A stretch of 64,000 nt of DNA from Bacteroidota bacterium (GCA_026391835.1 JAPLDF010000042.1:552-64551); one strand, 5' to 3'. Positions 18,601 to 63,981 are shown, counted from the first letter of the stretch. Notes: generated by a model not told the origin, from the sequence alone. A program made the numbers and translations.

Positions 18601-20938
18601 TCCATTGATATGCCGGGGAGGTGCCACCGTTTGTCGGAATTGCTGTGAAGGTCACAATGGTTCCTTCGCAAACTGGATTTGCCGATGCTGTAACCGATAC
18701 TGCAACAGTTTGCGATGGGTTCACTTCCATGGTGACGATATTCGATGTAGCAGGGCTTCCGGTTTTACATGGTAAAGAGGATGTCATTTTACAGCCGACC
18801 TGGTTTCCGTTGGCCGGAACATAAGCATATGTTGCATTTGTGGCACCCTGGACATCTGTACCATCCACCTGCCACTGATATGCAGGTGGAGTGCCACCGT
18901 TTACAGGAGTGGCAGTGAAAACAACACTGGTTCCCTGGCAAACAGGATTGGCTGAGGGTAAAACCGAAACGCTTGCAGGCAGCATCTGGTTGACTGTCAT
19001 TTGCACGATGTTCGATAGTGCCGGGTTCCCGGTTGAACACTGAACAGATGAGGTCAGTTGGCAACTGACCAGGTCGTCGTTCCCCGGGATATAAGAATAA
19101 GTTGCCGTAGTTGCACCGGGAACATCTGAACCGTTCACCTTCCACTGGTAGGAAGGATCGGTTCCGCCATTCACCGGGGTAGCTGTGAAATCAACAATAT
19201 TGCCGGTACATGACGGATTTGCTGAAGCTGCTATTGATAAGCTGACCGGCAGGTTTCCATTTACGGTTACGCCGATCGTTTCGGATAATGCAGGATTGTT
19301 TGAAACACATGAAAGACTAGAGGTCAGTTGGCATGAAACCAAATTGCCACTGGCAGGAACAAAGGTATAGGTGGAATTTGTTGCGCCCGGAATGTCCGAT
19401 CCATTCAGTTTCCATTGATATGAAGGAGTCTGGCCACCGTTTACAGGCACAGCGTAATATGTAACCGCGGTGCCGGCGCAAACAGTGCTGGCAGAGCTGG
19501 TAATTGAAACGCTGACAGGAACAAGGGGGACAATAACTGCAGTATGGGTTGATGTTTTGGGCCCGTTACAACCCTGTGCCATGGCAGTGATCACGGAGGT
19601 GCCACTCCAGGATGATGTATAGGTTACGGCCCCGGTATTGGGGTTGATCGTGTTGTTGGCAAGCAAACTGAGGGCATCAAGGCTGTAGGTTATACCGGTT
19701 GAATGAACAGCTGTTGCATAATAGGCAACAGTTCCATCTCCCTGGCAGCGGGAAGATGTTTCCCCGTTTGCAAATACAGGATACCCGACTTCACTTTTCT
19801 CATTCACCTGTCCGTTGACATAATACATCGTCATCGGTTCGTCACCCAATGCAACCTGTATGCCGTCAAGATATTGGCAGGAAGTTCCATTGTCGAACCA
19901 GGTCAGGTAGGTTGAACCGCCGTTATAGTTAAAATGCATGGTGAAAAGAACGGTATTGTCAGCATAGTTGATGCCCTGGGTGGCGGAACTCGTAACGACA
20001 ACCTCACCAGGTACCGTGACATTGAATGACAAACCGGGATATCCCGATGTGTTGGTAGCTTCCGAAAAGTTAAGTACTTCAGGATTATAATGGAGTGTCA
20101 GGGTAATATTTCCGATATTTATAAAACCGGCGACATTTACCGGGATGACAACGGATGTACCGGGGCAAGCCATCAGGTTTGGTATGGTGGTGATCGGAGC
20201 TCCCGAATACTCGCTTGTTATCAGGGAATCTACGTCTCCGTATGCAATTTTGTTATTATTGTCAGCATAAGCCCGCACGTAATATTTAGTGTTTGCAATG
20301 AGTCCGTTAATTTGACTGATAAAAGCGCCCGTACCTGTTCCATTCCTGGTTGTATCATCCTCAATCGTAGGTTTTGGGGAGGTACTCCAGCATACACCGC
20401 GCACGGTAACAGGCGAGCCGCCGTCATCGGTAATATAGCCGCCGCTCATCGCGCTTCTTTGCGTGATGTGGCAGCAGGTTGAGGTTGTCAGAAGGGCGGC
20501 ACAGCCTCCCCATGTTGGCTGGCCATTGCAGAAGGAGAGCTGCTGACCGTGCATCCCCGGGGGAATTGTCACCCAGGCTGAACCATTCCAGAAAAGCATG
20601 TCTCCGCGGTTGGCACCCTGGGGCGTTGCAACAGCAACCCACTGAACACCACTCCAGAAATAATAACCCGGGATCACCTTGTTAGAATCAATGCCGCCGC
20701 TGGCTGTGTTAAACACCAGCAGGCCGATCGCAACAGGTGATGCAACCGGTGCGGCAGTGCGCAGTGATGTCAATGCGACCCTTGGCGGCAGGAAACCTTT
20801 TATGGATGATTTTACATCGAGCATGGCCGAGGGATCTGGCTGGCTTCCATCTGAGTTTATCCCCACCTGGGCATGTAACCCCATGGTGAAAAACATCAGC
20901 AAAAATGTCAAACCGGAAAGTATTAAGTGCTTTTTCAT
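15653..20938 (-). CDS. 1,761-aa secreted modular surface protein: conserved N-terminal motif, FN3-like and cohesin-like domains, about 12 Ig-like repeats, C-terminal FISUMP domain
   Basis: Intact ORF with signal peptide MKKHLILSGLTFLLMFFTMGLHAQ. N-terminal motif SAMLDVKSSIKGFLPPRV. Cohesin-like segment at aa 250-380 (CPGTSVVIPVNVAGFINIGNITLTLHYNPEVLNF). 11 canonical repeats plus 1 variant carry P.YQWK.NG. The C-terminal about 200 aa match the FISUMP pattern (YNTVQIGTQCWLRENI, GGLYQWNEMM, CPSGWHIPTEAEF, NEYGFTALPGG, VRCLKN). No T9SS CTD was recognised. Confidence 0.85.
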   Translation of the reverse strand: MKKHLILSGLTFLLMFFTMGLHAQVGINSDGSQPDPSAMLDVKSSIKGFLPPRVALTSLRTAAPVASPVAIGLLVFNTASGGIDSNKVIPGYYFWSGVQWVAVATPQGANRGDMLFWNGSAWVTIPPGMHGQQLSFCNGQPTWGGCAALLTTSTCCHITQRSAMSGGYITDDGGSPVTVRGVCWSTSPKPTIEDDTTRNGTGTGAFISQINGLIANTKYYVRAYADNNNKIAYGDVDSLITSEYSGAPITTIPNLMACPGTSVVIPVNVAGFINIGNITLTLHYNPEVLNFSEATNTSGYPGLSFNVTVPGEVVVTSSATQGINYADNTVLFTMHFNYNGGSTYLTWFDNGTSCQYLDGIQVALGDEPMTMYYVNGQVNEKSEVGYPVFANGETSSRCQGDGTVAYYATAVHSTGITYSLDALSLLANNTINPNTGAVTYTSSWSGTSVITAMAQGCNGPKTSTHTAVIVPLVPVSVSITSSASTVCAGTAVTYYAVPVNGGQTPSYQWKLNGSDIPGATNSTYTFVPASGNLVSCQLTSSLSCVSNNPALSETIGVTVNGNLPVSLSIAASANPSCTGNIVDFTATPVNGGTDPSYQWKVNGSDVPGATTATYSYIPGNDDLVSCQLTSSVQCSTGNPALSNIVQMTVNQMLPASVSVLPSANPVCQGTSVVFTATPVNGGTPPAYQWQVDGTDVQGATNATYAYVPANGNQVGCKMTSSLPCKTGSPATSNIVTMEVNPSQTVAVSVTASANPVCEGTIVTFTAIPTNGGTSPAYQWKVNGLDKPGETNATYSYIPVSGDLVKCELTANVTCPSANPVVSNPVTMTVNPLLPVSVSISTPVNPVCAGTNVTFTAIPVNGGTQPAYQWMTNDEDIPGATNATYSFVAVNPVQIKCTLTSSVACPTGNPGISNVIALGINPLLPVSATITASENQVCQGTSVTFIAIPVNGGTIPAYQWKVNGSNAGTSSDHFTYVPSNNDKVTCTLTSNIQCTSGNPAFSNEESMTVTPRLVAGSISGDQTIVVGMTPAELIGVPPSNGTSPVYQMQFSTDNITFSDIPGATSLNYQAGPLTETTYYRQLQNATGTCGGSLPTNTVTIIVNPALSAGVSIICNPEDAMCQGALVTVTATPVNGGNSPLFQWKVNGNSVGSNSATYIYAPQNGDVIHCEMTSSLPYVSNNPASSNADTMMVNPSPGNTSVTVAAVPAGAVCAGTLVEFTATPIDGGAFPDYQWKINGANVGENNPVYSYVPVNGDKVLCVLTSNAPCAIGSPATSIADTITVNPILPVTITVTPSANNVCAGTSVTFTTTIGNGGTSPAYQWFVNGTIVTGATDAAYTYIPANSDAVKCELASNALCPSNSSVFSNVVAMTVNPLLPVSLTITASANPSCTGSAVTFSLTLVNGGTAPTYQWKLNGNIIIGATNATYTYVPLNNHAISCVATSNAPCATGNPATSNVINMTVNPLVPVKASIVASLYAVMPGTQVTFTATVENGGTSPVYQWKVNNVAVGTNSSTYTYTPANYDKVTCVVTSNYSVSCLSNNPASSNRLAMVVYTTGTACTGLPTVSYGGLTYNTVQIGTQCWLRENINLGTKLNITVAQTNNAVVEKYCYNDSLINCDMYGGLYQWNEMMQYVTTPGTQGICPSGWHIPTEAEFITLATYAGGISVAGGKLKEAGTSHFRAPNTSATNEYGFTALPGGSSYNYGGSIFYTNIYQTGYFHTSTDYASPNGPVFRSVSLSVASLGSYYNLKSTGNPVRCLKN
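16320..19528 (-). repeat. About 12 tandem coding repeats of about 240-260 bp (80-85 aa Ig-like modules with the motif C.G..V.F.A.P.NGG..P.YQWK.NG)
   Basis: Counted from the protein: PSYQWKLNG, PSYQWKVNG, PAYQWQVDG, PAYQWKVNG, PAYQWMTND, PAYQWKVNG, a variant SPVYQMQFS, PLFQWKVNG, PDYQWKING, PAYQWFVNG, PTYQWKLNG, PVYQWKVNN. The first repeat starts near aa 471. Confidence 0.8.
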
Positions 20939-28623: not shown

Positions 28624-28770
28624 AATAATGCAATCAATGCAAACAATTTAATCAATGCAAGCAATGCAAAAAACAAAACTACAAAGAAAAATTTTCAGAA
28701 TCCATACATCCTTTCATTGTTTGCATTGCATACATTCCTGCATTGCCTGCATTGTTTGCATTCCTGCATT
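28624..28770. repeat. Two opposed arrays of AATGCA-type 8-9 nt units in the pyrH-frr spacer
   Basis: Array A (28624-28668) reads aataatgca atcaatgca aacaattta atcaatgca agcaatgca on the plus strand. Array B (28715-28770) reads AATGCAGG AATGCAAAC AATGCAGGC AATGCAGG AATGTATGC AATGCAAAC on the minus strand, starting 2 nt after the pyrH stop. The two arrays share a perfect 12-nt complement, CAATGCAAACAA. Confidence 0.85.
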
Positions 28771-37404: not shown

Positions 37405-37432
37405 TCGTAATTCGTAATTCGTAATTCGTAAT
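37405..37432. repeat. 4 perfect heptamers (plus tcgtaat; minus TTACGAA) abutting the rpsB stop codon
   Basis: The minus strand reads TAA|TTACGAA TTACGAA TTACGAA TTACGAT TTTTT starting at the rpsB stop (37432-37434). Confidence 0.9.
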
Positions 37433-38364
37433 TATTTCTTGTTGCTTCTCCCGGCAGGCTTGCTGATACGTTTTCTTGCCGGCTTGTTATCCTCGGGAGC
37501 GGGTTCCAAACCCTTCATTTTGGCCACCTTGGTGTCAACAAAATCCTTTTTCACGATCTTGATGCCATCTTCGTCCACTTCGTCGTCGTCGCCGTCAAGT
37601 AAATGGGATCCCATTCTGCCTTCGAGTTCGTCGCCTTCGCCACGTTCGTCGCTGGCCTCTTTTTTATCGCGGTCGAGTTTGCGTTCCATCAGGCCCTCTT
37701 CCATTGCTCTTACCATTGTATCAACAATAAGGGAAATAGATTTGGAGGCATCGTCATTTGCAGGGATTGGGAAATCAACTGTTCTGGGATCGGAGTTGGT
37801 ATCCACGATCGCAAATGTCGGGATGTTCAGTTTTTTAGCCTCTGCAAGCGCAATGTGTTCTTTGAGGATGTCAACGATAAAAATCGCAGACGGGAGCCGG
37901 TTTAAGTCGGCGATGGAACCTAAGTTCTTTTCCAGTTTGGCGCGTTCACGGGTGATGGTGAGACGTTCCTTTTTAGAAAGGTTGGTATAGGAAGGCGAAC
38001 TCATCAGTTTGTCGATGGAGATCATTTTGCGCACAGCTTTGCGGATCGTGGCAAAGTTGGTAAGCATACCTCCCGGCCAGCGCTCGGTCACGTACGGCAT
38101 GTTGATTCTCTTCACATGCTCGGCTACGATATCCTTGGCTTGTTTTTTAGTGGCAACAAAAAGTACCTTTTTCCCGGCTTTGGCAATCTGTTTCAGGGCT
38201 GCGGCGGCTTCATCCACCTTGGCCATGGTTTTGTACAGGTCAATGATATGGATCCCGTTGCGTTCCATGAAGATATAGGGAGCCATTGCTGGGTTCCATT
38301 TGCGGCGCAAGTGACCAAAATGGACACCTGCATCCAGTAATGCATCAAAATTCGTTCTTGACAT
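37432..38364 (-). CDS. rpsB: 30S ribosomal protein S2 with a long charged C-terminal extension
   Basis: 310 aa. LLDAGVHFGHLRRKWNPAMAPYIF… The C-terminal about 70 aa are acidic then basic. Confidence 0.95.
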   Translation of the reverse strand: MSRTNFDALLDAGVHFGHLRRKWNPAMAPYIFMERNGIHIIDLYKTMAKVDEAAAALKQIAKAGKKVLFVATKKQAKDIVAEHVKRINMPYVTERWPGGMLTNFATIRKAVRKMISIDKLMSSPSYTNLSKKERLTITRERAKLEKNLGSIADLNRLPSAIFIVDILKEHIALAEAKKLNIPTFAIVDTNSDPRTVDFPIPANDDASKSISLIVDTMVRAMEEGLMERKLDRDKKEASDERGEGDELEGRMGSHLLDGDDDEVDEDGIKIVKKDFVDTKVAKMKGLEPAPEDNKPARKRISKPAGRSNKK

Positions 38365-39636: not shown

Positions 39637-42108
39637 ATGGAATATCGCCAAAATGAACAATTGCTCCTGGCAACCGAATTTGTTCAGTGCACGAACAAAA
39701 ACATTTTTTTAACCGGGAAGGCAGGGACCGGGAAAACCACTTTTTTGCATAACCTGAAAAAGATCACCCCGAAACGCATGGTGGTGGTTGCCCCGACGGG
39801 TGTAGCTGCCATCAATGCAGGGGGCGTAACCATTCATTCGTTTTTTCAGTTAAGTTTTGCACCTGCGGTTCCGGCTTCGATACAACCCAGGAACGCCAGC
39901 CATCCGGGGGAAGAAAGGTTCCAGCGAAAATTCAACCGTGAAAAAATCAGGCTCATCAAATGCATTGACCTGCTGGTGATCGATGAAATCAGCATGGTAC
40001 GTGCCGATATCCTGGATGCCATCGATGAGGTGCTGCGCAAATACAGGAACCATTATCTTCCCTTTGGCGGTGTTCAGCTGTTGATGATCGGCGACCTGCA
40101 TCAGCTTTCACCGGTAATAAAAGAGACAGAATGGTCGATTTTAAGAAACTTTTACGAGAGCGCCTACTTTTTTGACAGCCATGCGCTGAAAAAAACAAAT
40201 CCGGTCACCATTGAATTGAAAGAAATTTTCAGGCAGTCGGACAGCCATTTTATCGGGCTTCTAAACAAGGTGCGTGAAAACACCATCGACAGGCAAACCA
40301 TCACGGAATTAAATACCAGGTATATCCCCGGCTTTAATCCCGGCGAGGCTGAAGGGTATATTACGCTGACAACCCACAATGCGAACGCTTATGACATGAA
40401 CCAGGTAAAATTGAAAAGCATTTCCGGGCCGTCACAGTTTTTCCAGGCCGAAATTGAAGATGATTTCCCACCGCATGATTTTCCGACAGAAGAGCAGCTT
40501 GAACTGAGACCAAATGCGCAGGTTATGTTTATCAAGAATGACCTGTCTGCTGAAAAGCAATATTACAACGGGAAAATAGGAAAAATTACCCGTATGACAG
40601 ATGAGCTTGTTTTTGTTAAATGTCCTTCGGATGATGCCGAAATCGCAGTTGGCAGGGTGAGATGGGAAAACGTGAAATATACGCTTGACGAATCAACCAA
40701 GGAAATAAAAGAGAACATTGTGGGAAGTTTCACCCAGGTTCCGCTCAAATTAGCCTGGGCCATAACCATTCACAAGAGCCAGGGGCTTACGTTTGACAAG
40801 GTAATAATCGATGCCAATTCCGCTTTTGCATTCGGGCAGGTATATGTGGCCCTCAGCCGCTGCCGGACCTTTACCGGGATCGTATTGAGCACCCCCATCG
40901 CCGTGTCGGGAATAAAAACAGACGCACTGGTGCTGAACTATTCGCACGAGGCCCAGCAACAGGAACCCGGGCCCGGCGAACTTTTTGAGTCCAAATTCCT
41001 TTACCAGAAAGATTTATTTTTTGAACTGTTTGATTTCAAGTTGACCAGGTACAGGTTTGAAACATTGCTGAAACTTGTCCGGGAGAATCCAAACATCCTT
41101 GATCCTTCGCTGATTACCAACTTACTGGCAATGAAAAACCAATGTGATGCAACACTCTTTGAGGTCGCCGAAAAATTCAAGGTGCAGCTTTCTAATTTAA
41201 TGAAGCCGTTGGTGCTGCCCGAAAACAATGATGATTTGCAGGAACGGACCAGGCAGGCGGTCCGGTATTTTTCAACAACCATCAAAACCCATCTGTCGGG
41301 CAGCCTGGGAAACCTGGCAATCGATACGGATAACAAAGCTGTCAAAAAACTGCTGACCGAAGCGGCAGAAAAATTGCAGAAGGAGGTTTTCATCAGGTTA
41401 TCGTGTCTTGAAAACTGCAAGTTGGGCTTTGAAACCATTTCCTATATCAAAATGAGGTCGAATGCAGATGTCGATTTCCGTCCTTCGGTTCAGCAAAAAA
41501 CGCAGTTTCAGCAACAATCCTCAAAAAGCATCCCTCATCCCGAACTGTATGCCGAACTCAGGAAATGGCGCGACAACCTGGCTGATGAACGAGATATCCC
41601 AAAATACATGGTATTGCCGCAAAAATCGATGCTCGACCTGATGCAAAAATTGCCGGCGACACTTCCCGAATTAAAAACCATCAAGGGGATCGGGCAGGCT
41701 AAAATCAACCAGTTTGGCGAAGAGATCATAACCATCATTAATACGTTCTGCTCCGATCATGATATTGTTCCGGCACAGATTGAAATTCCTGCAGTGGAGA
41801 AGAAAGCCAAAGTGAATTCAGGGAAACTCAGTTTTGAGATGTTCAGGGCTGGTAAAACAGTCGCAGAAATTGCCGCGCTGCGATCCCTTTCGACCTCAAC
41901 CGTCGAAGGTCATCTGGCGCCCTATGTAGGAACAGGGGATTTGATGGTAAGTGAATTTGTACATGCTGAAAAATTGAACCGTGTGCTGGATTACATCAGC
42001 GCAAATCCCCATAAAACCCTGGGTGAAGTTAAAAGCGCCATGGGTGATACCGTTACCTATGCGGATCTGAAATTTATTTTTCAGCATTTAAGCCATTTAA
42101 ATTCATGA
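39637..42108 (+). CDS. PIF1/RecD-family ATP-dependent DNA helicase with C-terminal HRDC-like and HTH-like domains
   Basis: 823 aa. Walker A GKAGTGKTTF, then VVAPTGVAAINAGGVTIHSFF, LVIDEISMV, FGGVQLLMIGDLHQLSPV and AITIHKSQGLTFDKVII. The C-terminal segment ELYAELRKWRDNLADERDIPKYMVL…IKGIGQAKINQFG is HRDC-like. Confidence 0.85.
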   Translation: MEYRQNEQLLLATEFVQCTNKNIFLTGKAGTGKTTFLHNLKKITPKRMVVVAPTGVAAINAGGVTIHSFFQLSFAPAVPASIQPRNASHPGEERFQRKFNREKIRLIKCIDLLVIDEISMVRADILDAIDEVLRKYRNHYLPFGGVQLLMIGDLHQLSPVIKETEWSILRNFYESAYFFDSHALKKTNPVTIELKEIFRQSDSHFIGLLNKVRENTIDRQTITELNTRYIPGFNPGEAEGYITLTTHNANAYDMNQVKLKSISGPSQFFQAEIEDDFPPHDFPTEEQLELRPNAQVMFIKNDLSAEKQYYNGKIGKITRMTDELVFVKCPSDDAEIAVGRVRWENVKYTLDESTKEIKENIVGSFTQVPLKLAWAITIHKSQGLTFDKVIIDANSAFAFGQVYVALSRCRTFTGIVLSTPIAVSGIKTDALVLNYSHEAQQQEPGPGELFESKFLYQKDLFFELFDFKLTRYRFETLLKLVRENPNILDPSLITNLLAMKNQCDATLFEVAEKFKVQLSNLMKPLVLPENNDDLQERTRQAVRYFSTTIKTHLSGSLGNLAIDTDNKAVKKLLTEAAEKLQKEVFIRLSCLENCKLGFETISYIKMRSNADVDFRPSVQQKTQFQQQSSKSIPHPELYAELRKWRDNLADERDIPKYMVLPQKSMLDLMQKLPATLPELKTIKGIGQAKINQFGEEIITIINTFCSDHDIVPAQIEIPAVEKKAKVNSGKLSFEMFRAGKTVAEIAALRSLSTSTVEGHLAPYVGTGDLMVSEFVHAEKLNRVLDYISANPHKTLGEVKSAMGDTVTYADLKFIFQHLSHLNS

Positions 42109-42127
42109 AATTATATGAATATCAGCT

Positions 42128-43522
42128 ATGTACGGACGGCTTCTGAGTAACAATCTTTCTCGCGTCAGGCCATTTTGTATCCTGGGGGCCAAAGGTGTGG
42201 GGAAAACGACATTGATCAGTGATTTCGCTTTGAAATTCAGCAACTGGATCCACCTCGACCTTGAAACAGATGCCGATCGCGCAATTTTTCAACCCGGCGC
42301 CACCTCCGGTGAGACACTTCGGGCAATAAGTTTTTTAAAAGGCAGGGAGATCAGGGGAAAAGGGACGCTCATCGTGCTCGATGAAATTGGGAAATGCCCG
42401 GAGGCGATCAGGTGGGCGGGCGGACAGGCGGACGGGCGGACGGGCGGACAGGCGGACGGGCGGACGGGTGGACAGGCGGACGGGCGGACAGGCGGACAGG
42501 CGGACGGGCCGGTGGTGGTAGCGACTTCATCAATCATGACAAAGGAATTATTGGTATTATTGAACAATGAAAAGGAGGTGATGCATCCATATTATCTGCA
42601 TCCCTTTTCCTTTGAAGAGTTTTTGATGGTCATGGATGATCCTGCTTCGATGGAATCTTTCCGCGAGGTTCCCGTACCATATTATGCCTATGATAAATTA
42701 CTGAACTATTTTCATCTCTATGCCCTGATCGGCGGAATGCCCGAAATTACCGGGGCCTATGCGAAAAACCGGCATCTTTCGGGATTGAAAAACATTTACG
42801 GGCAAATCGAAGAACGCTACATGCAGTGCCTGCCGTTTGTTACTGCCGGAACAAAAAGCAGGGACCTTGCCATGGAAGTGTTGCAAAACACCTACCCTTA
42901 CGCTGCCACCCGGATCAGTTTCAACCGGTTCGGGAACCTGGAAAAAGGGAGCAGGGAAATCTCCCGGGCCTTCAAAGCCCTCGAACGGATCTTTCTGCTT
43001 CAAATGATCTACCCGGTTACATCACCCATCTTACCCATGGCTCCTGATACTTCCAAATTTCCAAGATTGCAGCTGCTCGATACCGGGCTGGTGAACTATT
43101 TCTCAGGCATTCAGAAGCCCCTGTTCCAGTCGCATGACATGAATGCGATTTTTGAAGGGCAAATTGCCAGGCAGGTTGTGGGACAGGAGATCCTGGCAAC
43201 CATGCCGGAGGCGTCAGGCCCCTGTTTCTGGGTAAGGGATAAGGCACAGTCCTCGGCATCTGTTGATTTTGTGATCCCGTTCGACGGCATGCTTATTCCG
43301 GTTGTGGTAAGGTCAGGGGAAGCCGGGAGGTTGCGGTCGCTGCACCAGTACGTTGACGAGTCGCCCCATCCTTTTGCTGTCAGGCTTTATGCCGGGAAAC
43401 CTGGAATTCAGCAAACTTCCACCATCAGGGGCAAGAAGTATTATCTCCTGAGCCTCCCCTATTTCCTGGCAGGAAAGATCAGGGAACACCTGGGAGGATT
43501 CAGGAAATTCGTAGAGGGGTGA
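42128..43522 (+). CDS. AAA+ ATPase (COG1373-type, AAA_14 plus DUF4143-like) carrying an in-frame octamer-repeat insertion
   Basis: 464 aa. P-loop GAKGVGKTTL, Walker B LIVLDEIGKCPEA, then 4x GGQADGRT encoded by the GGCGGACR array, then VVVATSS… It starts 19 nt after the helicase stop. Confidence 0.75.
   Translation: MYGRLLSNNLSRVRPFCILGAKGVGKTTLISDFALKFSNWIHLDLETDADRAIFQPGATSGETLRAISFLKGREIRGKGTLIVLDEIGKCPEAIRWAGGQADGRTGGQADGRTGGQADGRTGGQADGPVVVATSSIMTKELLVLLNNEKEVMHPYYLHPFSFEEFLMVMDDPASMESFREVPVPYYAYDKLLNYFHLYALIGGMPEITGAYAKNRHLSGLKNIYGQIEERYMQCLPFVTAGTKSRDLAMEVLQNTYPYAATRISFNRFGNLEKGSREISRAFKALERIFLLQMIYPVTSPILPMAPDTSKFPRLQLLDTGLVNYFSGIQKPLFQSHDMNAIFEGQIARQVVGQEILATMPEASGPCFWVRDKAQSSASVDFVIPFDGMLIPVVVRSGEAGRLRSLHQYVDESPHPFAVRLYAGKPGIQQTSTIRGKKYYLLSLPYFLAGKIREHLGGFRKFVEG
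42419..42506 (+). repeat. 11 tandem GGCGGACR octamers inside the AAA+ ATPase CDS (degenerate flanks 42411-42514)
   Basis: Read directly: GGCGGACA GGCGGACG GGCGGACG GGCGGACA GGCGGACG GGCGGACG GGTGGACA GGCGGACG GGCGGACA GGCGGACA GGCGGACG. With the 24-nt super-period it translates as GGQADGRT repeats. Confidence 0.95.
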
Positions 43523-43660: not shown

Positions 43661-44605
43661 ATGTCGATCAGTGTCCTGAACATCACCAAATTATATGGCA
43701 CCCAGAAAGCACTGGATGCCGTTACCCTTGAAATCAAACCTGGCGGAATTACCGGGTTGCTTGGCCCGAATGGTGCCGGGAAGAGCACGCTGATGAAAAT
43801 TCTCACCTGTTTTATTCCACCAACTACGGGAGATGCCTCGGTTTGCGGTTTTGATGTACTGGAGCAATCCATCGAAGTACGAAAAAAAGTCGGGTACCTG
43901 CCTGAGAACAACCCGCTCTATCTTGACCTGTATGTGAGGGAATTCCTGGGGTTCATTGCCGGAACACATCAGCTGAAAGGAAATATCGCCGGTCGCGTTG
44001 CTGAAATGATCGAAATGACCGGGCTGCAGTCGGAACAGCACAAAAAAATCGGTGCTCTTTCAAAGGGTTACCGCCAGCGCGTCGGACTTGCACAGGCCAT
44101 GATCCACGATCCGGAAGTACTGATCCTGGATGAACCAACATCCGGCCTTGATCCCAACCAGTTGCTCGAGATCCGCAACCTGATCACCGAAGTTGGCAAG
44201 ACCAAGACCGTCATGATGTCAACACACATCATGCAGGAGGTGGAAGCCATCTGCAACAGGGCTGTTATCATTCACAAAGGACGCATTGTTGCTGACGACT
44301 CCACCGAAAACCTCCAGCACCTGGCCACTGCCGGTGTGATTATCAAGGTCGAGTTCAACATCCCGGTCGGGGGTGGCCTGCTTCAAAAGATACCCGGGGT
44401 TCTTGACGTTTCTTTTCCACGCGGTGAAGGTGAACACAGGATATTGAACAACGAATCCCGCTTCTGGCACCTCGCTTCGGCACCGGGAACCGACATCCGT
44501 GCAGATGTATTTCAATTTGCGGTAGAACATAAGTATACAGTACTGTCACTTCACCGTGAGGAGCAGAAGCTTGAAGATGTTTTCCAGGAACTGACCAGGT
44601 CATAA
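43661..44605 (+). CDS. gldA: ABC transporter ATP-binding protein, GldA-like (gliding-motility-associated)
   Basis: 314 aa. Walker A GPNGAGKST, signature LSKGYRQRV, Walker B LILDEPTSGLD. The segment GYLPENNPLYLDLYVREFL resembles my recollection of Flavobacterium GldA. Confidence 0.6.
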   Translation: MSISVLNITKLYGTQKALDAVTLEIKPGGITGLLGPNGAGKSTLMKILTCFIPPTTGDASVCGFDVLEQSIEVRKKVGYLPENNPLYLDLYVREFLGFIAGTHQLKGNIAGRVAEMIEMTGLQSEQHKKIGALSKGYRQRVGLAQAMIHDPEVLILDEPTSGLDPNQLLEIRNLITEVGKTKTVMMSTHIMQEVEAICNRAVIIHKGRIVADDSTENLQHLATAGVIIKVEFNIPVGGGLLQKIPGVLDVSFPRGEGEHRILNNESRFWHLASAPGTDIRADVFQFAVEHKYTVLSLHREEQKLEDVFQELTRS

Positions 44606-44766: not shown

Positions 44767-44798
44767 ATTCGTAATTCGTAATTTATAATTCGTAATTC
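44767..44798. repeat. Heptamer array attcgta x4 (one degenerate) just upstream of the metK start
   Basis: attcgta attcgta atttata attcgta attc. This is the reverse complement of the TTACGAA unit found after rpsB and coaD. Confidence 0.85.
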
Positions 44799-49616: not shown

Positions 49617-50681
49617 TTATTCATTGTGCGGAAGCCTGATTTCCAGGGCACCAACACCATATTTTGACATGGGGGCATCGAAGAACTCGATGCCCTCCTG
49701 TTTTTTAAGCAACTCGATGAGATTGGTGCGTAATACTCCGTTCCCAACCCCATGGATAAAAACCACTTTAAGGAAATGGTTCGCAATTGCGCTATCGAGG
49801 CATTTCAGGAAAAAGCTTTTCTGGAATTCAAGGATTTCTGATTTCTCAAGGTTTGCCGGATCATCAACCAGTTCGTGAATATGAAGGTCAACAACCGCTT
49901 CACGCGGGGCAACCTGGTATTTGACAATCAGCGGGGCGGTTTCCGGCTTCTGCTGATCAGGTTTACCGGTATTGTTCGCATCCTGCTCTGCCGACTGGAA
50001 ATACTCGGTTAGCGATAGTACCCTAACCACGATACCCCTGGCCTGTATGACAGAATTGTCGCGATAGTTTCCTTCCTTAAAAAACTTCTTTCCCTCAACC
50101 CGGAACTCGGAATTGAAAGGCGGAAGCAGCGACTGGCATTGCTCCTTATGAAAAAGGAATTGCATGCAGCCGTCGGTCCAATGTGTCAGCTGCTCCCGGT
50201 TAATGGTATTAATAAGCAGTTTTGAGTCAGGAAATATGCTGCCATAATCAACCCCGGTATAATGGCCGAGGGGTGTTTTACTGAAAATATTGTACAGGAT
50301 ATCGTAGGAACTGTTGTTGACAAGGAATACGTCGAGGTTCCCTGTAACCAGCCATTTTTGATCATGCGGGACAAATGCAAGGTAAATGTCTTCCGATTTG
50401 CGGTCGATGGCAAGGTGAGAAGGAAGTTGAACCAGCCTGTCGTCGCCGGGTTCGGGAGCCTCTTCAGGTTGTGGAGGTATGTCAATGTTGTAATGCTCTT
50501 CAAAAAACCGGCCGGCCGGATCTTTTGCATCGATTTTTATCAATTCACTGATCATCGTCGGGATTTCGAAACCATCCTCGATCATAATACTTACCATGCG
50601 GGTGTCTATCACTTTCGTAACGATTCCACCGCCGGAAGCATTCAGGAATTTTACTTTATCGCCAATTTGGAGGGTGCTCAT
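49617..50681 (-). CDS. Smr (MutS2 C-terminal-like) domain protein with a DUF2027-like N-terminal region
   Basis: 354 aa. The C-terminal segment VDLHIHELV…VVFIHGVGNGVLRTNLIELLK is an Smr pattern. Confidence 0.7.
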   Translation of the reverse strand: MSTLQIGDKVKFLNASGGGIVTKVIDTRMVSIMIEDGFEIPTMISELIKIDAKDPAGRFFEEHYNIDIPPQPEEAPEPGDDRLVQLPSHLAIDRKSEDIYLAFVPHDQKWLVTGNLDVFLVNNSSYDILYNIFSKTPLGHYTGVDYGSIFPDSKLLINTINREQLTHWTDGCMQFLFHKEQCQSLLPPFNSEFRVEGKKFFKEGNYRDNSVIQARGIVVRVLSLTEYFQSAEQDANNTGKPDQQKPETAPLIVKYQVAPREAVVDLHIHELVDDPANLEKSEILEFQKSFFLKCLDSAIANHFLKVVFIHGVGNGVLRTNLIELLKKQEGIEFFDAPMSKYGVGALEIRLPHNE

Positions 50682-50710: not shown

Positions 50711-50766
50711 GGCGGACAGGCGGACGGGCGGACAGGCGGACGGGCGGACGGGCGGACAGGCGGACA
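50711..50766 (+). repeat. 7 tandem GGCGGACR octamers, 30 nt upstream of the Smr gene start
   Basis: GGCGGACA GGCGGACG GGCGGACA GGCGGACG GGCGGACG GGCGGACA GGCGGACA, read directly. Confidence 0.95.
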
Positions 50767-50799
50767 GGTCGTTGTGAAACATATATTTTTTTCAGACGG

Positions 50800-50807: not shown

Positions 50808-51013
50808 GTCTATATTTTAGTTTTAACTTTTCAGTGCTTTCCGCGTCAGGAACCATACCCGGATTATGCCTGTCCGTTCAACACTCCTCTCGTTCACACG
50901 CCTGCCGTATATTACTCATTTTAAATAAGATAACACCACATCCAGATATGATAAAGTTTGAATATCAAAAAAAGTAGTAACTTGCGCCCAGTATTAACCA
51001 AAAAATTGTCATT

Positions 51014-53700: not shown

Positions 53701-53740
53701 AAATGGCGAAATAGATTTTATTTCGCCATTTTGCTTTTTT
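53701..53740 (+). terminator. Perfect 13-bp hairpin plus T-tract between convergent genes (overlaps the rdgB stop)
   Basis: AAATGGCGAAATA (53701-53713) / loop gattt / TATTTCGCCATTT (53719-53731), followed by tgctttttt. Confidence 0.7.
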
Positions 53741-54311
53741 GCCATTTTACCATTTTATCAATGGCCCTCCCCCGGTGGCTTATCCCGTTTTTGAGGTAGG
53801 CGGGCATCGCGGCAAAGGTTTGACGATGGCCATCGGGCCTGAATACAGGATCATACCCAAAACCATCCGCACCTTCCTTTTCGGTTGTAATCACCCCGTC
53901 GATCCTGCCTTCAAAAAGTTGTTCCGCCCCATCCATGATCAGGCAGATGACACAGCGAAAGCAGGCTTTGCGGTTCTCAATTCCTTCCAATTCACGGAGA
54001 ATTTTGGTTACATTGTCATCAAAACTACAGCCTTCGCCGGCATAGCGCGCCGAATAAACACCCGGGCGGCCCTCAAGGGCCTCGATCTCCAGCCCGGTAT
54101 CATCGGCAAAACAGTTCAACCCGGTAATTCCGTGGATAAACCGGGCTTTCTGGACGGCATTTCCTTCAATTGTTTCCTGGGTTTCGGGGATGTCAACATC
54201 CAGGTTCACGTCTTTCAGGCTGAGAATTTGAAGATCATTCCCCATAATCTCCTGAACTTCACGAAGTTTATGGGTATTGTTGGTGGCGAAGAGGAGGTTG
54301 GGCATGATCAA
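53718..54311 (-). CDS. rdgB: Non-canonical purine NTP pyrophosphatase (RdgB/HAM1 family)
   Basis: 197 aa. LLFATNNTHKLREVQEI, FADDTGLEIEAL.GRPGVYSARYAG and FGYDPVF. Confidence 0.85.
   Translation of the reverse strand: MIMPNLLFATNNTHKLREVQEIMGNDLQILSLKDVNLDVDIPETQETIEGNAVQKARFIHGITGLNCFADDTGLEIEALEGRPGVYSARYAGEGCSFDDNVTKILRELEGIENRKACFRCVICLIMDGAEQLFEGRIDGVITTEKEGADGFGYDPVFRPDGHRQTFAAMPAYLKNGISHRGRAIDKMVKWQKSKMAK
53725..53756. repeat. 4 octamers RCCATTTT (minus AAAATGGY) encoding the last 12 codons of rdgB
   Basis: gccatttt gctttttt gccatttt accatttt. The minus strand translates as KMVKWQKSKMAK-stop. Confidence 0.75.
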
Positions 54312-55445: not shown

Positions 55446-56033
55446 ATGGATTTTTTAGGATTTCTTTTTTCAAAAAAATTTCTCAGGCATTTCCTCATTG
55501 CCATCGGGATAACGCTGGCCTTAATATGGATTGTATTACAATCACTTGCATGGTATACGAAGCACAATGACTACATCGTTGTTCCCGATTACCGGGGATT
55601 GTCATTTGTTGAAGTACAGTCAAATCCTGAAAATGTCAATTACCAGTTCAATGTGATTGATTCGATTTTTGATGCCGATAAGCCGAAGGGGTCCATTCTG
55701 TCGCAGGATCCGTTCCCGGGGGCGAAAGTCAAGAAAAATCGGATGGTATACTTAACCATCACCTCCATGGTGCCGGAAAAAACAACCATGCCCGAACTGC
55801 GCGACCTTACGTTGCGGCAGGCACAGTCGATGCTGGAATCCGCAGGACTGAAACTTGGGAAATTGTCCTATATAAAATCATTTGATGAAGACGCAGTTCA
55901 AAATCAACTGTTTAAAGGACGAATTATAAAAGCAGGAACCGTGCTTGACAAAGGTTCTGTGATCAACCTGTCTATTGGCATGGGCGCAAAAGCTATGATC
56001 GATTCGCTGAAGGTGGATAGTTTGGAGGAATAG
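55446..56033 (+). CDS. Membrane-anchored PASTA domain protein
   Basis: 195 aa. An N-terminal TM helix is followed by two PASTA-like units (VVPDYRGLSFVEVQ…, MPELRDLTLRQAQSMLESAGLKLG…). Confidence 0.75.
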   Translation: MDFLGFLFSKKFLRHFLIAIGITLALIWIVLQSLAWYTKHNDYIVVPDYRGLSFVEVQSNPENVNYQFNVIDSIFDADKPKGSILSQDPFPGAKVKKNRMVYLTITSMVPEKTTMPELRDLTLRQAQSMLESAGLKLGKLSYIKSFDEDAVQNQLFKGRIIKAGTVLDKGSVINLSIGMGAKAMIDSLKVDSLEE

Positions 56034-56035
56034 AC

Positions 56036-56091
56036 GGGCGGACAAGCGGACAGGCGGACGGGCGGACAGGCGGACAGGCGGACGGGCGGAC
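56036..56091 (+). repeat. 7 tandem GGCGGACR octamers starting 2 nt after the PASTA gene stop
   Basis: GGCGGACA AGCGGACA GGCGGACG GGCGGACA GGCGGACA GGCGGACG GGCGGACG, read directly. Confidence 0.95.
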
Positions 56092-56126: not shown

Positions 56127-58100
56127 ATGCGTTTTACCTTATTCATTTTCATTTCTCTGTTCGCAGGGGTTGCAGGATTTTCACAGGAGAAACTTACTGG
56201 TTTGCACATTAACCCGATGGTAAGGGCGCGGGCAATTGAGTATAACCAGATGAAATACCTTGCCAACGGTGAAGATACCCTGCCGGTTGCCATGCCGTTT
56301 TTCGATGATTTCTCGGCAAACAGCGTGTTTCCATCTTCCAAACGGTGGATCGACCGTTTTGCCTTTGAGAACGACGACTTCCCGGTTTTCCCGATAAACC
56401 AGGGTGCCATGACACTTGATGCCATCAATGATTCAGGGAACATGTATCCCACCGCAGTCCCGGGCCCGATGAGCTTTATTGCAGATCACCTGACTTCCCG
56501 CTATATCAGACTTGATTCTGCATTTACGCCTGTTCCACATGCACTTACACCTGCCGATTCCGTTTACCTCAGCTTTTTTTTCCAGCCACAGGGCAGGGGG
56601 ATGGCCCCGCAAAAAATCGACACATTGCTCCTTGAATTTCTCACAATTCCGGCCCACGACAGCATCATACCCGGCGACACCATTAAAATTCCGGATGCCT
56701 GGAAACAGAAATGGTATGCACTGGGAATGTCGCTGGACACCTTCCGGTATTATAACAACAACAAATATTTCATCCAGGTGATGGTTCCGGTTACCGATCC
56801 CGTGTTTTTTACAAATAAATTCAGGTTCAGGTTTACAAATTATGTAAGCCTGGCAAGTTCAGCTGAGCCGAGCTGGCAAAACAACACTGCCCAATGGAAC
56901 CTCGACAATGTTTATCTGAACACTGGCCGTAACAGGTACGACACCGTTTATCCTGAGCTGCGCTTTGTTTACCGCCCTCCTTCCCTGCTCAGGCGATATG
57001 CATCGATGCCCTATCCCCAGTATTGCAACGACCCGACCAACGAGGTCAAGGACACGCTGGAAATCACGATGACCAACCGGGATATAATTCCCCAGATGTC
57101 AACCTACAGTTATTATGTGACCAACCCGGCAACCAGTTTTTCAAAAACATACAACGGAGGAAGTTACAACATCGATCCCTACAAAAGTGTCCCGTATGTG
57201 ACCTACCAGAAATTTGCGCATCCCGAGGTTCCCTTCCTGATCCCCATCAGCCAGGCGGACAGTGCGATTTTTCTGATGAAGCATGTGTTAAGGGCCACGA
57301 CACCCGGAACGGTGATGGGTGATACCATGCAGGCATACCAGAAGTTTTTCAATTATTACGCCTATGACGACGGCACACCGGAAGCCAGTTACGGGCTGAG
57401 CCCTACCGGATCACAGCTTGCCTATGGTTTCAATCTCAACAAATCGCCTGATACCCTGCGTGCAGTCAGCATGTTTTTCAACAGGACGCTGGGCAACGAC
57501 AGCAAACAGTTCTTTTACCTCTGTGTCTGGAATGACAATGCCGGCAAACCGGGTGATACCATCTATTCCGATCTCGTCATGCCGCGCTACGCTGACAGTC
57601 TCAACAAATTCGCCACATACCATATCTATCCACCGCTTGCCATCACAGGAAAATTCTATGTAGGCTGGATACAAACAACCGACGACAATCTTTCGATCGG
57701 GTTCGATCGTCAGAACAGGAGCCAGAATGAGATCTTCTACAACACAACCGGCGTGTGGAACAACTCATCCTTTGAAGGGTCGCTGATGATCCGGCCGATC
57801 ATCGGGAAGCCTATTCCGCTGGGAATCGGCGACATACCGGCCAATGATGTTAAAATATCCGTTTACCCCAACCCTTGCAACTCCGGCCTCTTACACCTGT
57901 GTGTCCCTGACTCCTATGATAAAACAAGCAATTACGGTGACGGCACGATTCTCATTTCCGACCTGGTTGGGCATATTCTGCTGAAAACAGGATTTCAGCA
58001 GGAAATCAATGTAACTTCACTGTCCAATGGATTGTATTTCCTGGAAATCAGGAATCGTGCAGGCGTCCGGGTTGGCACTGCAAAATTTATAATCACCTGA
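56127..58100 (+). CDS. T9SS cargo protein of unknown function
   Basis: Signal peptide MRFTLFIFISLFAGVAGFSQ. The C-terminus VYPNPCNSGLLHL…LSNGLYFLEIRNRAGVRVGTAKFIIT. Confidence 0.75.
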   Translation: MRFTLFIFISLFAGVAGFSQEKLTGLHINPMVRARAIEYNQMKYLANGEDTLPVAMPFFDDFSANSVFPSSKRWIDRFAFENDDFPVFPINQGAMTLDAINDSGNMYPTAVPGPMSFIADHLTSRYIRLDSAFTPVPHALTPADSVYLSFFFQPQGRGMAPQKIDTLLLEFLTIPAHDSIIPGDTIKIPDAWKQKWYALGMSLDTFRYYNNNKYFIQVMVPVTDPVFFTNKFRFRFTNYVSLASSAEPSWQNNTAQWNLDNVYLNTGRNRYDTVYPELRFVYRPPSLLRRYASMPYPQYCNDPTNEVKDTLEITMTNRDIIPQMSTYSYYVTNPATSFSKTYNGGSYNIDPYKSVPYVTYQKFAHPEVPFLIPISQADSAIFLMKHVLRATTPGTVMGDTMQAYQKFFNYYAYDDGTPEASYGLSPTGSQLAYGFNLNKSPDTLRAVSMFFNRTLGNDSKQFFYLCVWNDNAGKPGDTIYSDLVMPRYADSLNKFATYHIYPPLAITGKFYVGWIQTTDDNLSIGFDRQNRSQNEIFYNTTGVWNNSSFEGSLMIRPIIGKPIPLGIGDIPANDVKISVYPNPCNSGLLHLCVPDSYDKTSNYGDGTILISDLVGHILLKTGFQQEINVTSLSNGLYFLEIRNRAGVRVGTAKFIIT

Positions 58101-58164: not shown

Positions 58165-59202
58165 ATGGACGATAAACCCGAAATTCCTGAAGAATCCAGT
58201 GAATTATTTGAACATTTCCGATTTGTAGTCGATCGCGGGCAAAATCCGCTGCGTATCGATAAATACCTGATGGCGAAAATTGAAAATGCCTCTAGGAACC
58301 GGATACAAAACTCGGCGCATGCCGGAAACATCCTTGTGAATGATGTGGTGGTCAAGCCCAATCACAAAGTGAAACCCCTTGACATTATCACCATTGTACT
58401 GGCCTATCCTCCCCGTGACACAGAGGTTTATCCCGAAAATATCCCCATCTCCATCGTTTACGAGGACCATGACATCATGGTGATCAACAAAGCGCCGGGA
58501 ATGGTGGTACATCCCGGTCATGGCAACTTCACGGGGACCCTGCAGAATGCCCTGCTTTACCATTTGCAGCAAACCAACCCGGATGATCCTGATGCAAAGC
58601 CCTATCTTGTTCACCGGATCGACAAAGATACCAGCGGGATCATGCTGATTGCCAAGAATGAACTGGCGCAGTCAAAAATCGCAAAACAGTTTTTCGACCA
58701 TACCATCGACCGTACCTATGTGGCGCTCGTGTGGGGAAATATCGATCACGATGAAGGAACCATCGATGCAAATATCGGCCGGGACATCCGCAACCGCCTT
58801 GTGCAGGCTATTTACGACGACCCGGAGAAAGGCCGGCATGCGGTTACACACTACCATGTCCTTGAGCGCTTTGGATATGTAACCCTGGTCGAATGCCGGC
58901 TTGAAACGGGCCGCACACACCAGATCAGGATCCATTTCAAGCACATCGGGCATACGTTGTTTAACGATGACAGCTATGGCGGCTCTGAAATCCTGAAAGG
59001 CACCACCTTTACCAAGTATAAACAGTTTGTAAATAACTGCTTTTCGCTGATTCCCCGCCAGGCCCTGCACGCCAAATCGCTGGGATTTATTCATCCCACC
59101 ACCAAAGAATTCATGCATTTCGACTCTGAATATCCCGCCGACCTGGCGGCGGCCATTGAAAAATGGAGACAATATGGGAAGGGGTTGGTGAATGAGGAAT
59201 GA
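58165..59202 (+). CDS. rluD: RluA-family 23S rRNA pseudouridine synthase (RluD-like) with an N-terminal S4 domain
   Basis: 345 aa. Contains LVHRIDKDTSGIMLIAKN and RTHQIRIHF, with an S4-like RIDKYLMAKIENASRNRIQ. Confidence 0.85.
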   Translation: MDDKPEIPEESSELFEHFRFVVDRGQNPLRIDKYLMAKIENASRNRIQNSAHAGNILVNDVVVKPNHKVKPLDIITIVLAYPPRDTEVYPENIPISIVYEDHDIMVINKAPGMVVHPGHGNFTGTLQNALLYHLQQTNPDDPDAKPYLVHRIDKDTSGIMLIAKNELAQSKIAKQFFDHTIDRTYVALVWGNIDHDEGTIDANIGRDIRNRLVQAIYDDPEKGRHAVTHYHVLERFGYVTLVECRLETGRTHQIRIHFKHIGHTLFNDDSYGGSEILKGTTFTKYKQFVNNCFSLIPRQALHAKSLGFIHPTTKEFMHFDSEYPADLAAAIEKWRQYGKGLVNEE

Positions 59203-59256
59203 CAAATGACAAATGACAAATGACAAATGACGAATGATGAATTATGAAGGATGAAC
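59187..59256. repeat. About 10 heptamers (NNRAATG; core ACAAATG x4) spanning the rluD stop and the plsC start
   Basis: GTGAATG AGGAATG ACAAATG ACAAATG ACAAATG ACAAATG ACGAATG ATGAATT ATGAAGG ATGAACA. The rluD TGA (59200-59202) and the plsC ORF ATG (59244) both lie inside the array. Confidence 0.85.
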
Positions 59257-63011: not shown

Positions 63012-63893
63012 ATGATCAAATCCATGACCGGTTACGGTAAAGCTGTCCTTGATATTACCGGGCGGAAACTCACCATCGAGATCAAAACACTTAACAGCAA
63101 GCAACTTGACCTGAACATGAAAATACCGGGATATTTCAGGGAAAAGGAGTGGGAGGTGAGAGGTATGCTTACCCAGCGGTTTGACCGGGGCAAAATCGAT
63201 TTTTACATCGGGACAGAAGTAACCGGCGAGATGCTGAATTACTCAATCAACCACGCTCTTGCGAAAAAATACCACGCAGAACTGAACAGCCTCGCCAGCG
63301 AACTTCATGAGGGCGGACAGGATTTGCTTTCGCTTGTACTTAAAATGCCGGATGTAATGCAAACCAGCCGCGACGAGTTAAGCGAACACGACTGGCCTTC
63401 CATCGCCGGTGCCATTGATGATGCCATCACCCAGGCAGATTTGTTCCGTATCAATGAAGGGAAAGTGCTGGAGGAGGATATGATGAACCGTGTGAACAGC
63501 ATATTGAAGCTTCTTGAAGAGATTGAGCCTTATGAAAAGAGGCGGATCATCGATTTGCGCGAGCGTTTGCTGCGTGATTTCTCGAAATATTCCGGCGATT
63601 TTAACGGCTCAGCCCCCGACCAGAACCGATTTGAGCAGGAGCTGATCTATTACCTCGAAAAGCTTGATATCACTGAAGAAAAAGTCCGCCTGATGAAACA
63701 TTGCAGGTATTTCCTGGCAACATTGCAGGAAGCGGTTTCACAGGGTAAAAAACTCGGATTCGTAACCCAGGAAATGGGCCGCGAAATCAACACCATCGGG
63801 TCGAAGGCCAGTGATGTGGAGATACAGAAAATCGTCGTACAGATGAAGGATGAGCTGGAGAAGATCAAGGAGCAGTTGGGCAATATACTTTAA
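63012..63893 (+). CDS. yicC: YicC/YloC-family protein (stress-induced endoribonuclease family)
   Basis: 293 aa. MIKSMTGYG at the N-terminus and a C-terminal GFVTQEMGREINTIGSKA motif. Confidence 0.85.
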   Translation: MIKSMTGYGKAVLDITGRKLTIEIKTLNSKQLDLNMKIPGYFREKEWEVRGMLTQRFDRGKIDFYIGTEVTGEMLNYSINHALAKKYHAELNSLASELHEGGQDLLSLVLKMPDVMQTSRDELSEHDWPSIAGAIDDAITQADLFRINEGKVLEEDMMNRVNSILKLLEEIEPYEKRRIIDLRERLLRDFSKYSGDFNGSAPDQNRFEQELIYYLEKLDITEEKVRLMKHCRYFLATLQEAVSQGKKLGFVTQEMGREINTIGSKASDVEIQKIVVQMKDELEKIKEQLGNIL

Positions 63894-63981
63894 TGCAAAC
63901 AATGAAAACAATGCAGACAATGCAGATAATGCAGACAATGCAAATAATGCAGACAATGCAAATAATTTAAAAAAATGCAAC
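63892..63981 (+). repeat. 10 tandem nonamers AATGCARAY beginning inside the yicC stop codon
   Basis: (T)AATGCAAAC AATGAAAAC AATGCAGAC AATGCAGAT AATGCAGAC AATGCAAAT AATGCAGAC AATGCAAAT AATTTAAAA AATGCAACC. Confidence 0.95.

Follow-up and report, generated by a model that had tools for sequence, protein, structure and literature searches.

Introduction

Long simple sequence repeats (LSSRs) of prokaryotes have units of 5-11 nucleotides (nt), and examples include the cyanobacterial STRR heptamers, the G-rich GGGNATC repeats of Xanthomonas and Nostoc, and TAACTGA (Mrazek et al. 2007, as cited in PMC4679880; Rehm et al. 2015, PMC4692102; MacGregor 2015, PMC4679880). TAACTGA repeats occur in some Bacteroidetes (MacGregor 2015, PMC4679880), and LSSRs whose unit is not a multiple of three are reported to be under-represented in coding DNA. 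In this study we analysed an array of the octamer GGCGGACR that lies in frame within the gene for an AAA_14/DUF4143 ATPase of an uncultured Prolixibacteraceae-like member of the Bacteroidales. The window, as we call the whole stretch of 64,000 nt that was analysed, comes from Bacteroidota bacterium GCA_026391835.1 (JAPLDF010000042.1:552-64551). Literature searches on tandem repeats and on DUF4143 yielded no report of such arrays for Prolixibacteraceae-like Bacteroidales.

The window and its clade resemble the LSSR-bearing genomes in having many head-to-tail arrays of 7-9-nt units, with an intergenic bias beside start and stop codons, recurrent units and copy-number variation. The octamer forms three head-to-tail arrays of 11.6, 7.2 and 7.4 copies in the window according to Tandem Repeats Finder (TRF), far beyond chance; most arrays are non-coding and near gene ends, and single-unit changes of copy number occur between strains (L005 vs L008; the loci of relatives carry L numbers). 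The G-rich arrays of the clade follow the placement rules reported for the G-rich heptamer repeats of Xanthomonas and Nostoc, and tandemly inverted arrays occur as well (PMC4692102). The differences are that the unit is the octamer GGYGRACR, that the host is an uncultured Prolixibacteraceae-like bacterium, and that one array sits within the gene of a conserved enzyme, where many species have it in frame. Two other classes of coding repeat are also similar. The contingency loci of Haemophilus, Neisseria and Campylobacter likewise have, inside a coding sequence, a hypermutable repeat whose unit length is not divisible by three, so that a one-unit change would truncate the product. In-frame coding minisatellites, or variable-number tandem repeats, share the effective period of 24 nt (8 amino acids, aa), the length steps of whole peptide repeats and the disordered segment, but the underlying unit here is 8 nt and is common to non-coding arrays.

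Our results favour, with a probability of about two in three, the reading that the array in the ATPase gene is the coding member of a genome-wide LSSR family of 7-9-nt tandem arrays, mutable by slippage, in which selection keeps the frame-preserving changes and a variable disordered loop is the product. The family would be typical of an uncultured Prolixibacteraceae-like clade of Bacteroidales. The array would lie where the structure is permissive, in a disordered loop on the surface of the P-loop domain that connects the helix following Walker B with the next strand, and would have been present at this site since before the divergence of the sampled species. Replication slippage probably makes the array hypermutable. 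Purifying selection on the host gene would allow a change to persist only if it comprises three units (24 nt, 8 aa), frameshifts presumably being purged. The outcome would be a Gly/Gln/Ala/Asp/Arg/Thr loop of variable length rather than an ON/OFF polymorphism, with units that decay over time into unique loop sequence and a length that is probably neutral for function.

Results

The coding array and the loop that it encodes

The host gene, the array and the two anchors of the variable loop are as follows.

42128..43522, + strand: AAA_14 + DUF4143 (COG1373-type) ATPase of 464 aa (open reading frame (ORF), Pfam, homologues, AlphaFold2, PADLOC)
42362..42385, + strand: Walker B strand GTLIVLDE (residues 79-86), which anchors the variable loop on the left and is conserved in all orthologues (model strand E80-85)
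42411..42514, + strand: coding octanucleotide array of ~11.6 GGCGGACR units with degenerate units at its flanks, translated as AGGQADGRT GGQADGRT GGQADGRT GGQADGP
42512..42532, + strand: strand VVVATSS, residues 129-135, at the sensor 1 position, right anchor of the variable loop (AlphaFold2 strand E129-134)

The segment 42411-42514 (+) reads GGTGGGCG, then 11 copies of GG[C/T]GGAC[A/G], then GGCCGGTGG. TRF reports 42417-42509 at period 8 (11.6 copies, 88% matches) and also at period 24 (3.9 copies, 95% matches). A pattern of two units with at most 2 mismatches has 23 matches in the window against 0.18 expected, a number reached in 0 of 100 shuffles, and all 23 lie on the + strand and are confined to three arrays, at 42411-42505, 50711-50765 and 56037-56091. 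The placement of the octamer array in frame within the ATPase coding sequence, between Walker B and VVVATSS, had been proposed in a first-pass annotation of this DNA, and sequence, TRF and ORF agree with it. That annotation read the peptide as 4x GGQADGRT; the repeat peptide is as given, and the copy number is ~3.75 (3 x GGQADGRT + GGQADG). Its 32-aa insert has to be shortened, as the distance from anchor to anchor is 216 nt vs 150-156 nt in repeat-free orthologues, an excess of only ~20-22 aa. Two of its other statements were borne out: translation finds no stop codon of the GGCGGACR unit in any of six frames, and an antisense ORF (42289..42567) runs through the array; unit changes that are not a multiple of three shift the frame, since simulated gains or losses of one or two units lead to stops at 125-152 aa and those of three units keep the frame.

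Pfam assigns AAA_14 (PF13173) to residues 15-97 with 38.3 bits (gathering cut-off 27) and DUF4143 (PF13635) to residues 276-394 with 38.6 bits (gathering cut-off 28.1), and both Walker motifs can be recognised in the protein, A as GAKGVGKT and B as LIVLDE. DUF4143, the counterpart of COG1373, is a domain of unknown function that has been assigned to the PD-(D/E)XK superfamily (Steczkiewicz et al. 2012, PMC3424549). The protein database gave 1002 homologues, with a best match of 76% identity. The ATPase resembles the AAA_14/DUF4143 family in both domains, in the Walker motifs and in a strong match to the PADLOC profile of PDC-S01 (PDLC04788, E = 3.4e-102, 340.7 bits), and differs in its repeat-bearing loop, as most members, including the orthologues below ~60% identity, have a short, repeat-free one. 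PDC-S01 belongs to a set of 145 candidates for phage defence, all of them untested (Payne et al., bioRxiv 10.1101/2024.01.29.577857). The ATPase gene differs from the context of such a candidate, since it lies outside any defence island, in a core synteny that is conserved in all close relatives.

The AlphaFold2 model built from 53 homologues has a mean predicted local distance difference test score (pLDDT) of 88.6 and a predicted template modelling score of 0.88. The insert residues 105-124, flanked by helix 91-105 and strand 129-134, have a pLDDT <50, and the insert is, in this model, a disordered loop in an otherwise confident fold. In the strand that follows, A132, S134 and S135 are nearly invariant. 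Among solved structures, the sequence search gave no match for the ATPase, and the fold search gave only generic similarity to AAA+, Orc1-Cdc6 and STAND proteins, with template modelling scores <=0.36.

The same site in other species

Homologues that are ~61-76% identical to the ATPase carry inserts of variable length at exactly the same site, many of them made of 8-aa repeats, with peptides such as GGQADGRT, GGQADKRT, GRGDKGT, GQGDEGT, GQVDGWT and WQVGKLA. The DNA of these inserts is octamer-periodic, with ~5-18 units in intact genes, for example:

L001 coding array: 18 units of GGCGGACA
L002 coding array: 6 units of GGCGGACR
L004 coding array: 9 units of GGGGGACR
L007 coding array: 14 units of GGACGAGG
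L008 coding array: 16 units of GG[T/C]GGACR

Further coding arrays are present at L015, L017, L024, L091 and L096, and decayed remnants at L013, L019, L020, L025 and L027. Orthologues below ~60% identity have no repeat and a short loop, with 150-156 nt between the anchors. The array is therefore an ancient feature of a single clade, orthologous by position, whose units arise, multiply and decay. The first-pass annotation had proposed to look for the insert in homologues and held that its conservation in unrelated taxa would speak against a switch. Its presence at 61-76% identity comes close to that outcome, but the carriers are relatives and not unrelated taxa, and below ~60% the insert is absent.

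The invariant Trp96 codon and its neighbours (AGG TGG GYG; 42400-42420 in the window, and in the orthologues) already resemble the octamer unit AGGTGGRC, and these codons may have been the seed from which the coding array arose in situ.

A different repeat was found at L051 (49% identity), where 8170-8270 is an in-frame 24-nt minisatellite of ~3 x GTTATCCCCTCGTCGGAGAGCSRG, with the peptide VIPSSES[ER], just after the sensor-1 strand. It was considered as a second octamer invasion and rejected, the DNA period being 24 nt and not octamer-based, and it is a second, independent repeat insertion in the same part of the domain.

The recurrence of repeats in this part of the domain bears on the possibility of adaptive in-frame diversification, by which fast change of the loop would tune the ATPase or evade a partner, for instance a phage inhibitor of a defence-type ATPase-nuclease, while the function is kept. 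The unrelated minisatellite of L051 in a neighbouring loop would fit this explanation, as would the retention of the array at one site in at least 11 species with varied lengths and units, the fast in-frame changes between otherwise identical haplotypes that are described below, and the match to PDC-S01. However, the loop is of low complexity and predicted to be disordered, several species have only an array decayed to unique sequence or a short loop, and we know of no partner or trigger; neutral slippage with a frame filter predicts the same pattern. We regard adaptive diversification as unlikely.

Reading frame and length variants

For the frame test the reading frames of each locus were compared between two anchors, the peptide of Walker B and PFSFEEFL. 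Every gap-free locus was in frame, and the active arrays, with 13 distinct alleles from 11 species, contained 0 frameshifts. Eight of the 11 species had been retrieved at the DNA level by tblastn with C-terminal peptide patterns, independently of ORF calling, and an array frameshift would not hide these eight because the seeds were C-terminal and the search was at the DNA level. If the frame were random, the chance of this result for eight species would be (1/3)^8, or ~1.5e-4.

The lengths also change in steps that keep the frame. Proteins that cluster at 90% identity have lengths that are a multiple of 8 aa apart (504 vs 496; 486 vs 494; 509/541/581; 473 vs +8), and in the pairs L008 vs L100 and L024 vs L101, which have 0 mismatches over 21.5 kb, a single 24-nt indel is found, in the coding array. 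Over 15.8 kb of L005 and L008, which represent two strains of one species, the only real indels are one additional unit of an intergenic 9-mer (+9 nt) and one additional unit of an intergenic 8-mer (+8 nt), when a scaffold N-run inside the coding array is set aside. Single-unit slippage occurs in the intergenic arrays of the clade, and none was seen in the coding array. The autocorrelation at lag 24 exceeds that at lags 8 and 16 in the coding arrays of 7/7 species (in the window, 0.96 at lag 24 and 0.89 at lags 8 and 16), as compared with 2/10 octamer intergenic arrays. This 24-nt superperiod is a secondary feature imposed by the reading frame and indicates a long-term frame-preserving turnover of units.

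Truncated proteins were considered as candidate OFF alleles, and 0/4 of those with DNA examined proved to be an array frameshift. P0123 (L005, 380 aa) and P0143 (L006, 333 aa) start in or just after the array, which is caused by N-runs inside it, and the fourth protein, encoded on a contig of 818 nt, keeps its frame across the insert. P0132 (L102) comes from a ~30-unit array joined to unrelated upstream sequence, probably a chimeric assembly. Positions 1-330 of L102 hold the ~30-unit GGCGGACR array, followed by the C-terminal part of an ATPase orthologue, and the sequence before the array is unrelated to the gene; the contig is either a chimera bridged via two arrays of the same unit or the product of real recombination between arrays. 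A protein search with the N-terminal 96 aa for short frameshifted ORFs gave two fragments only, on contigs <1 kb, and one of these two crosses the insert in frame. In public assemblies, scaffold N-runs lie inside octamer arrays at L005 9896-9994, L006 9821-9920, L051 10983-11081 and L002 ~18830-18946; such arrays evidently break short-read metagenome assemblies and truncate gene calls.

These data bear directly on the proposal of the first-pass annotation that the array is a slipped-strand on/off switch. The gene would then be a phase-variable contingency locus, in which mispairing by 8 nt switches the ATPase between a full-length (ON) and a truncated (OFF) form as a kind of bet-hedging. As judged from the sequence such a switch is mechanically possible, since a unit of 8 nt is not divisible by three and changes of one or two units would truncate the protein; the array is also the most mutable site of the region in two relatives, single-unit slippage is real in the intergenic arrays of the clade, and the match to PDC-S01, though to an untested candidate, points the same way. 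The comparative data do not support it. None of the 13 array-bearing alleles is out of frame, unlike the expectation for a contingency locus; the length variants seen are all multiples of 24 nt, that is, triplets of units; the four truncated proteins are explained otherwise; and the 24-nt superperiod points to long-term frame-preserving turnover. In contrast to the known contingency loci, the gene encodes a cytoplasmic ATPase rather than a surface, lipopolysaccharide or restriction-modification function, it lies in core synteny by ribosomal-protein genes, gldA and metK and not in a variable island, and its repeat is placed mid-gene, in a loop of a folded domain and away from the 5' end. The comparison of strains that the annotation had suggested does find arrays of varying length, but in steps of 24 nt, with none out of frame, and it concerns relatives only, with assembly collapse a possible cause of the difference in two pairs. 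An on/off switch is accordingly improbable.

Other arrays of the window and the clade

The octamer recurs outside the ATPase gene in two arrays, and seven further arrays have other units of 7-9 nt.

50711..50768, + strand: intergenic array of 7.2 x GGCGGACR (TRF), in the spacer that separates two divergent genes, DUF2027/Smr (49617..50681, minus strand) and Toluene_X (51014..)
56033..56091, + strand: intergenic array of 7.4 copies of GGCGGACR (TRF), from the stop codon of the PASTA-domain ORF 55446..56033 to 36 nt before the ORF 56127..58100
28627-28669, 28722-28770, 37405-37433, 44767-44798, 53720-53756, 59198-59237 and 63892-63966: seven further arrays of 7-9-nt units, all intergenic, with the units AATGCAATC, TGCATTGCC, TCGTAAT, ATTCGTA, ATTTTGCC, AATGACA and AATGCAAAC

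That GGCGGACR also forms two non-coding arrays, as had been noted before, is confirmed for both. The view that the repeat is primarily a DNA-level element stands as well, as intergenic arrays of the same octamer and octamer-periodic DNA in the orthologues support it, and not peptide likeness alone. In total the window has 10 arrays of 7-9-nt units, of which 9/10 are intergenic and abut start or stop codons. Array density is 2-5 per 10 kb in relatives vs ~0-0.5 in distant Bacteroidota loci, and the unit families GGYGRACR, TCGTAAW, TAGCGARR and CCATTTTA are common to several loci and species.

The minus-strand ORF 49617..50681 has the start of the array at 50711-50768 ~30 nt upstream of its ATG, and the G-rich strand of the array is antisense to this nearest gene. 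The same Smr/Toluene_X spacer holds orthologous arrays in L001, L002, L008, L015, L016, L017 and L024. Inverted pairs of arrays of the same octamer family are found in this spacer (L015 18547/18756; L016 18686/18860; L017 18580/18808; L024 18664/19156; L020 12537/12574), by which the C-rich strand becomes the sense strand for each of both genes; the window has the left array only, with single degenerate reverse-complement units near 50885-50905. The window and L001 have the same unit in their coding and intergenic arrays, whereas in L002, L008, L015, L016 and L017 the two differ by 1-2 bases. Concerted evolution of the coding and intergenic arrays within one genome was considered and set aside, since in this descriptive comparison the orthologous coding arrays of different species are at least as alike as the coding and intergenic arrays of one genome, and vertical inheritance of each array is sufficient.

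The seven further arrays often span from a stop codon to near the next start codon, and the two 9-mer arrays at 28.6-28.8 kb are inverted relative to each other. In relatives, a CCATTTTA array abuts the start codon of the ATPase gene, and an array of the TAGCGARR type begins at its stop codon, also among orthologues as distant as 42-48% identity in some cases. Unit families at orthologous positions were seen at L005 9541-9590, L008 9951-9999, L006 11005, L008 11511, L022 3946, L027 2473, L085 10930 and L057 11654, and the TCGTAAW family occurs at several loci in several genomes.

Genomic context

Two neighbours flank the ATPase gene.

39637..42108, + strand: Pif1-like superfamily 1B helicase with HRDC and HTH_40 domains (ORF; Pfam domains of orthologues; NCBIfam RecD-like and RecQ C-terminal matches below cut-off)
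43661..44605, + strand: gldA, ATP-binding subunit of the gliding-motility ABC transporter (NCBIfam TIGR03522, 409.5 bits vs cut-off 402.6), the conserved downstream neighbour

The helicase gene ends 19 nt upstream of the ATPase start, and because of this short gap the two genes are probably co-transcribed. The order rplM-rpsI-rpsB-tsf / pif1-like / ATPase / gldA / metK ... DUF2027/Smr / Toluene_X is present in every close relative fetched, and the adjacency of the ATPase gene and gldA is kept down to 41% ATPase identity. The helicase is upstream only at loci with an ATPase at least 61% identical to the query, i.e. in the insert-bearing clade (window, L001-L030, L045, L090-L101). A few close loci show no helicase, namely L023 and contigs that are short or truncated at an end. 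Orthologues with at most 59% identity have gldA downstream, but neither the upstream helicase nor the insert; the association of helicase and insert may reflect a single ancestral event and be phylogenetically confounded. The relatives are all metagenome-assembled genomes with the labels Bacteroidales, Prolixibacteraceae or 'Draconibacterium', and the ATPase gene is a syntenic chromosomal gene in uncultured Prolixibacteraceae-like Bacteroidales.

The helicase and the shared unit raise the question whether the arrays act as nucleic acid. The G-rich arrays could serve as two-layer G-quadruplexes or protein-binding sites, with the coding copy regulating the pif1-like/ATPase/gldA transcript and its translation being incidental. 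An identical unit is present at three loci in 64 kb, unit families are common to different loci and species, ViennaRNA with G-quadruplexes enabled predicts several two-layer quadruplexes (-51.5 vs -34.2 kcal/mol), and the Pif1-family helicase gene lies directly upstream. Pif1 helicases unwind G-quadruplexes. On the other hand, with respect to the G-quadruplex class of Rehm et al. (2015) the G4Hunter scores of 0.92-1.14 are borderline, under the usual threshold of 1.2-1.5, and most of the G-tracts are GG; G-richness is absent from the majority of the other arrays of these genomes, such as TCGTAAT, AATGACA and CCATTTTA, and the link between helicase and insert is perhaps one ancestral event, as described above. 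A role of this kind is therefore quite improbable. Still less probable, and close to speculation, is a composite in which the GGYGRACR arrays would be structure-forming or protein-bound cis elements handled by the Pif1-like helicase and the ATPase-nuclease, expression would depend on the repeats, and slippage by one unit would reversibly switch the ATPase off in a minority of cells. If true, this would amount to a self-reporting feedback loop or a mutator-type switch below the assembly consensus.

Discussion

Several observations weigh against the reading of the array as a slippage-mutable LSSR kept in frame by selection. The 24-nt indels in the two otherwise identical pairs may be assembly collapse, as the MEGAHIT k141 contig is the shorter one in both, and the arrays have caused scaffold gaps in relatives. 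All alleles are those of the assembly consensus, in which OFF subpopulations of a few percent would be invisible, and for the species of the window no second sequence was found in the protein database (best 76%), the genome contigs or the metagenome contigs. The match to the untested candidate PDC-S01 also counts here, since phase variation is common among defence genes. Finally, slippage alone does not explain three loci with one octamer.

The locus would provide a clean natural case of a hypermutable repeat that, although its unit length is not divisible by three, has resided for a long evolutionary time inside an essential-looking enzyme fold. The clade's arrays resemble the cyanobacterial and Xanthomonas repeat families, the origin and function of which are still unknown, and the analysis flags an uncultured clade of Bacteroidales in which recurrent arrays of 7-9-nt units, some of them paired in inverted orientation, fill the intergenic spacers. 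Unit length alone is insufficient for calling phase variation, and the case is a caution in this respect. The reading frame would act as a filter here, which turns 8-nt slippage into steps of 24 nt and leaves a measurable 24-nt superperiod in the array.

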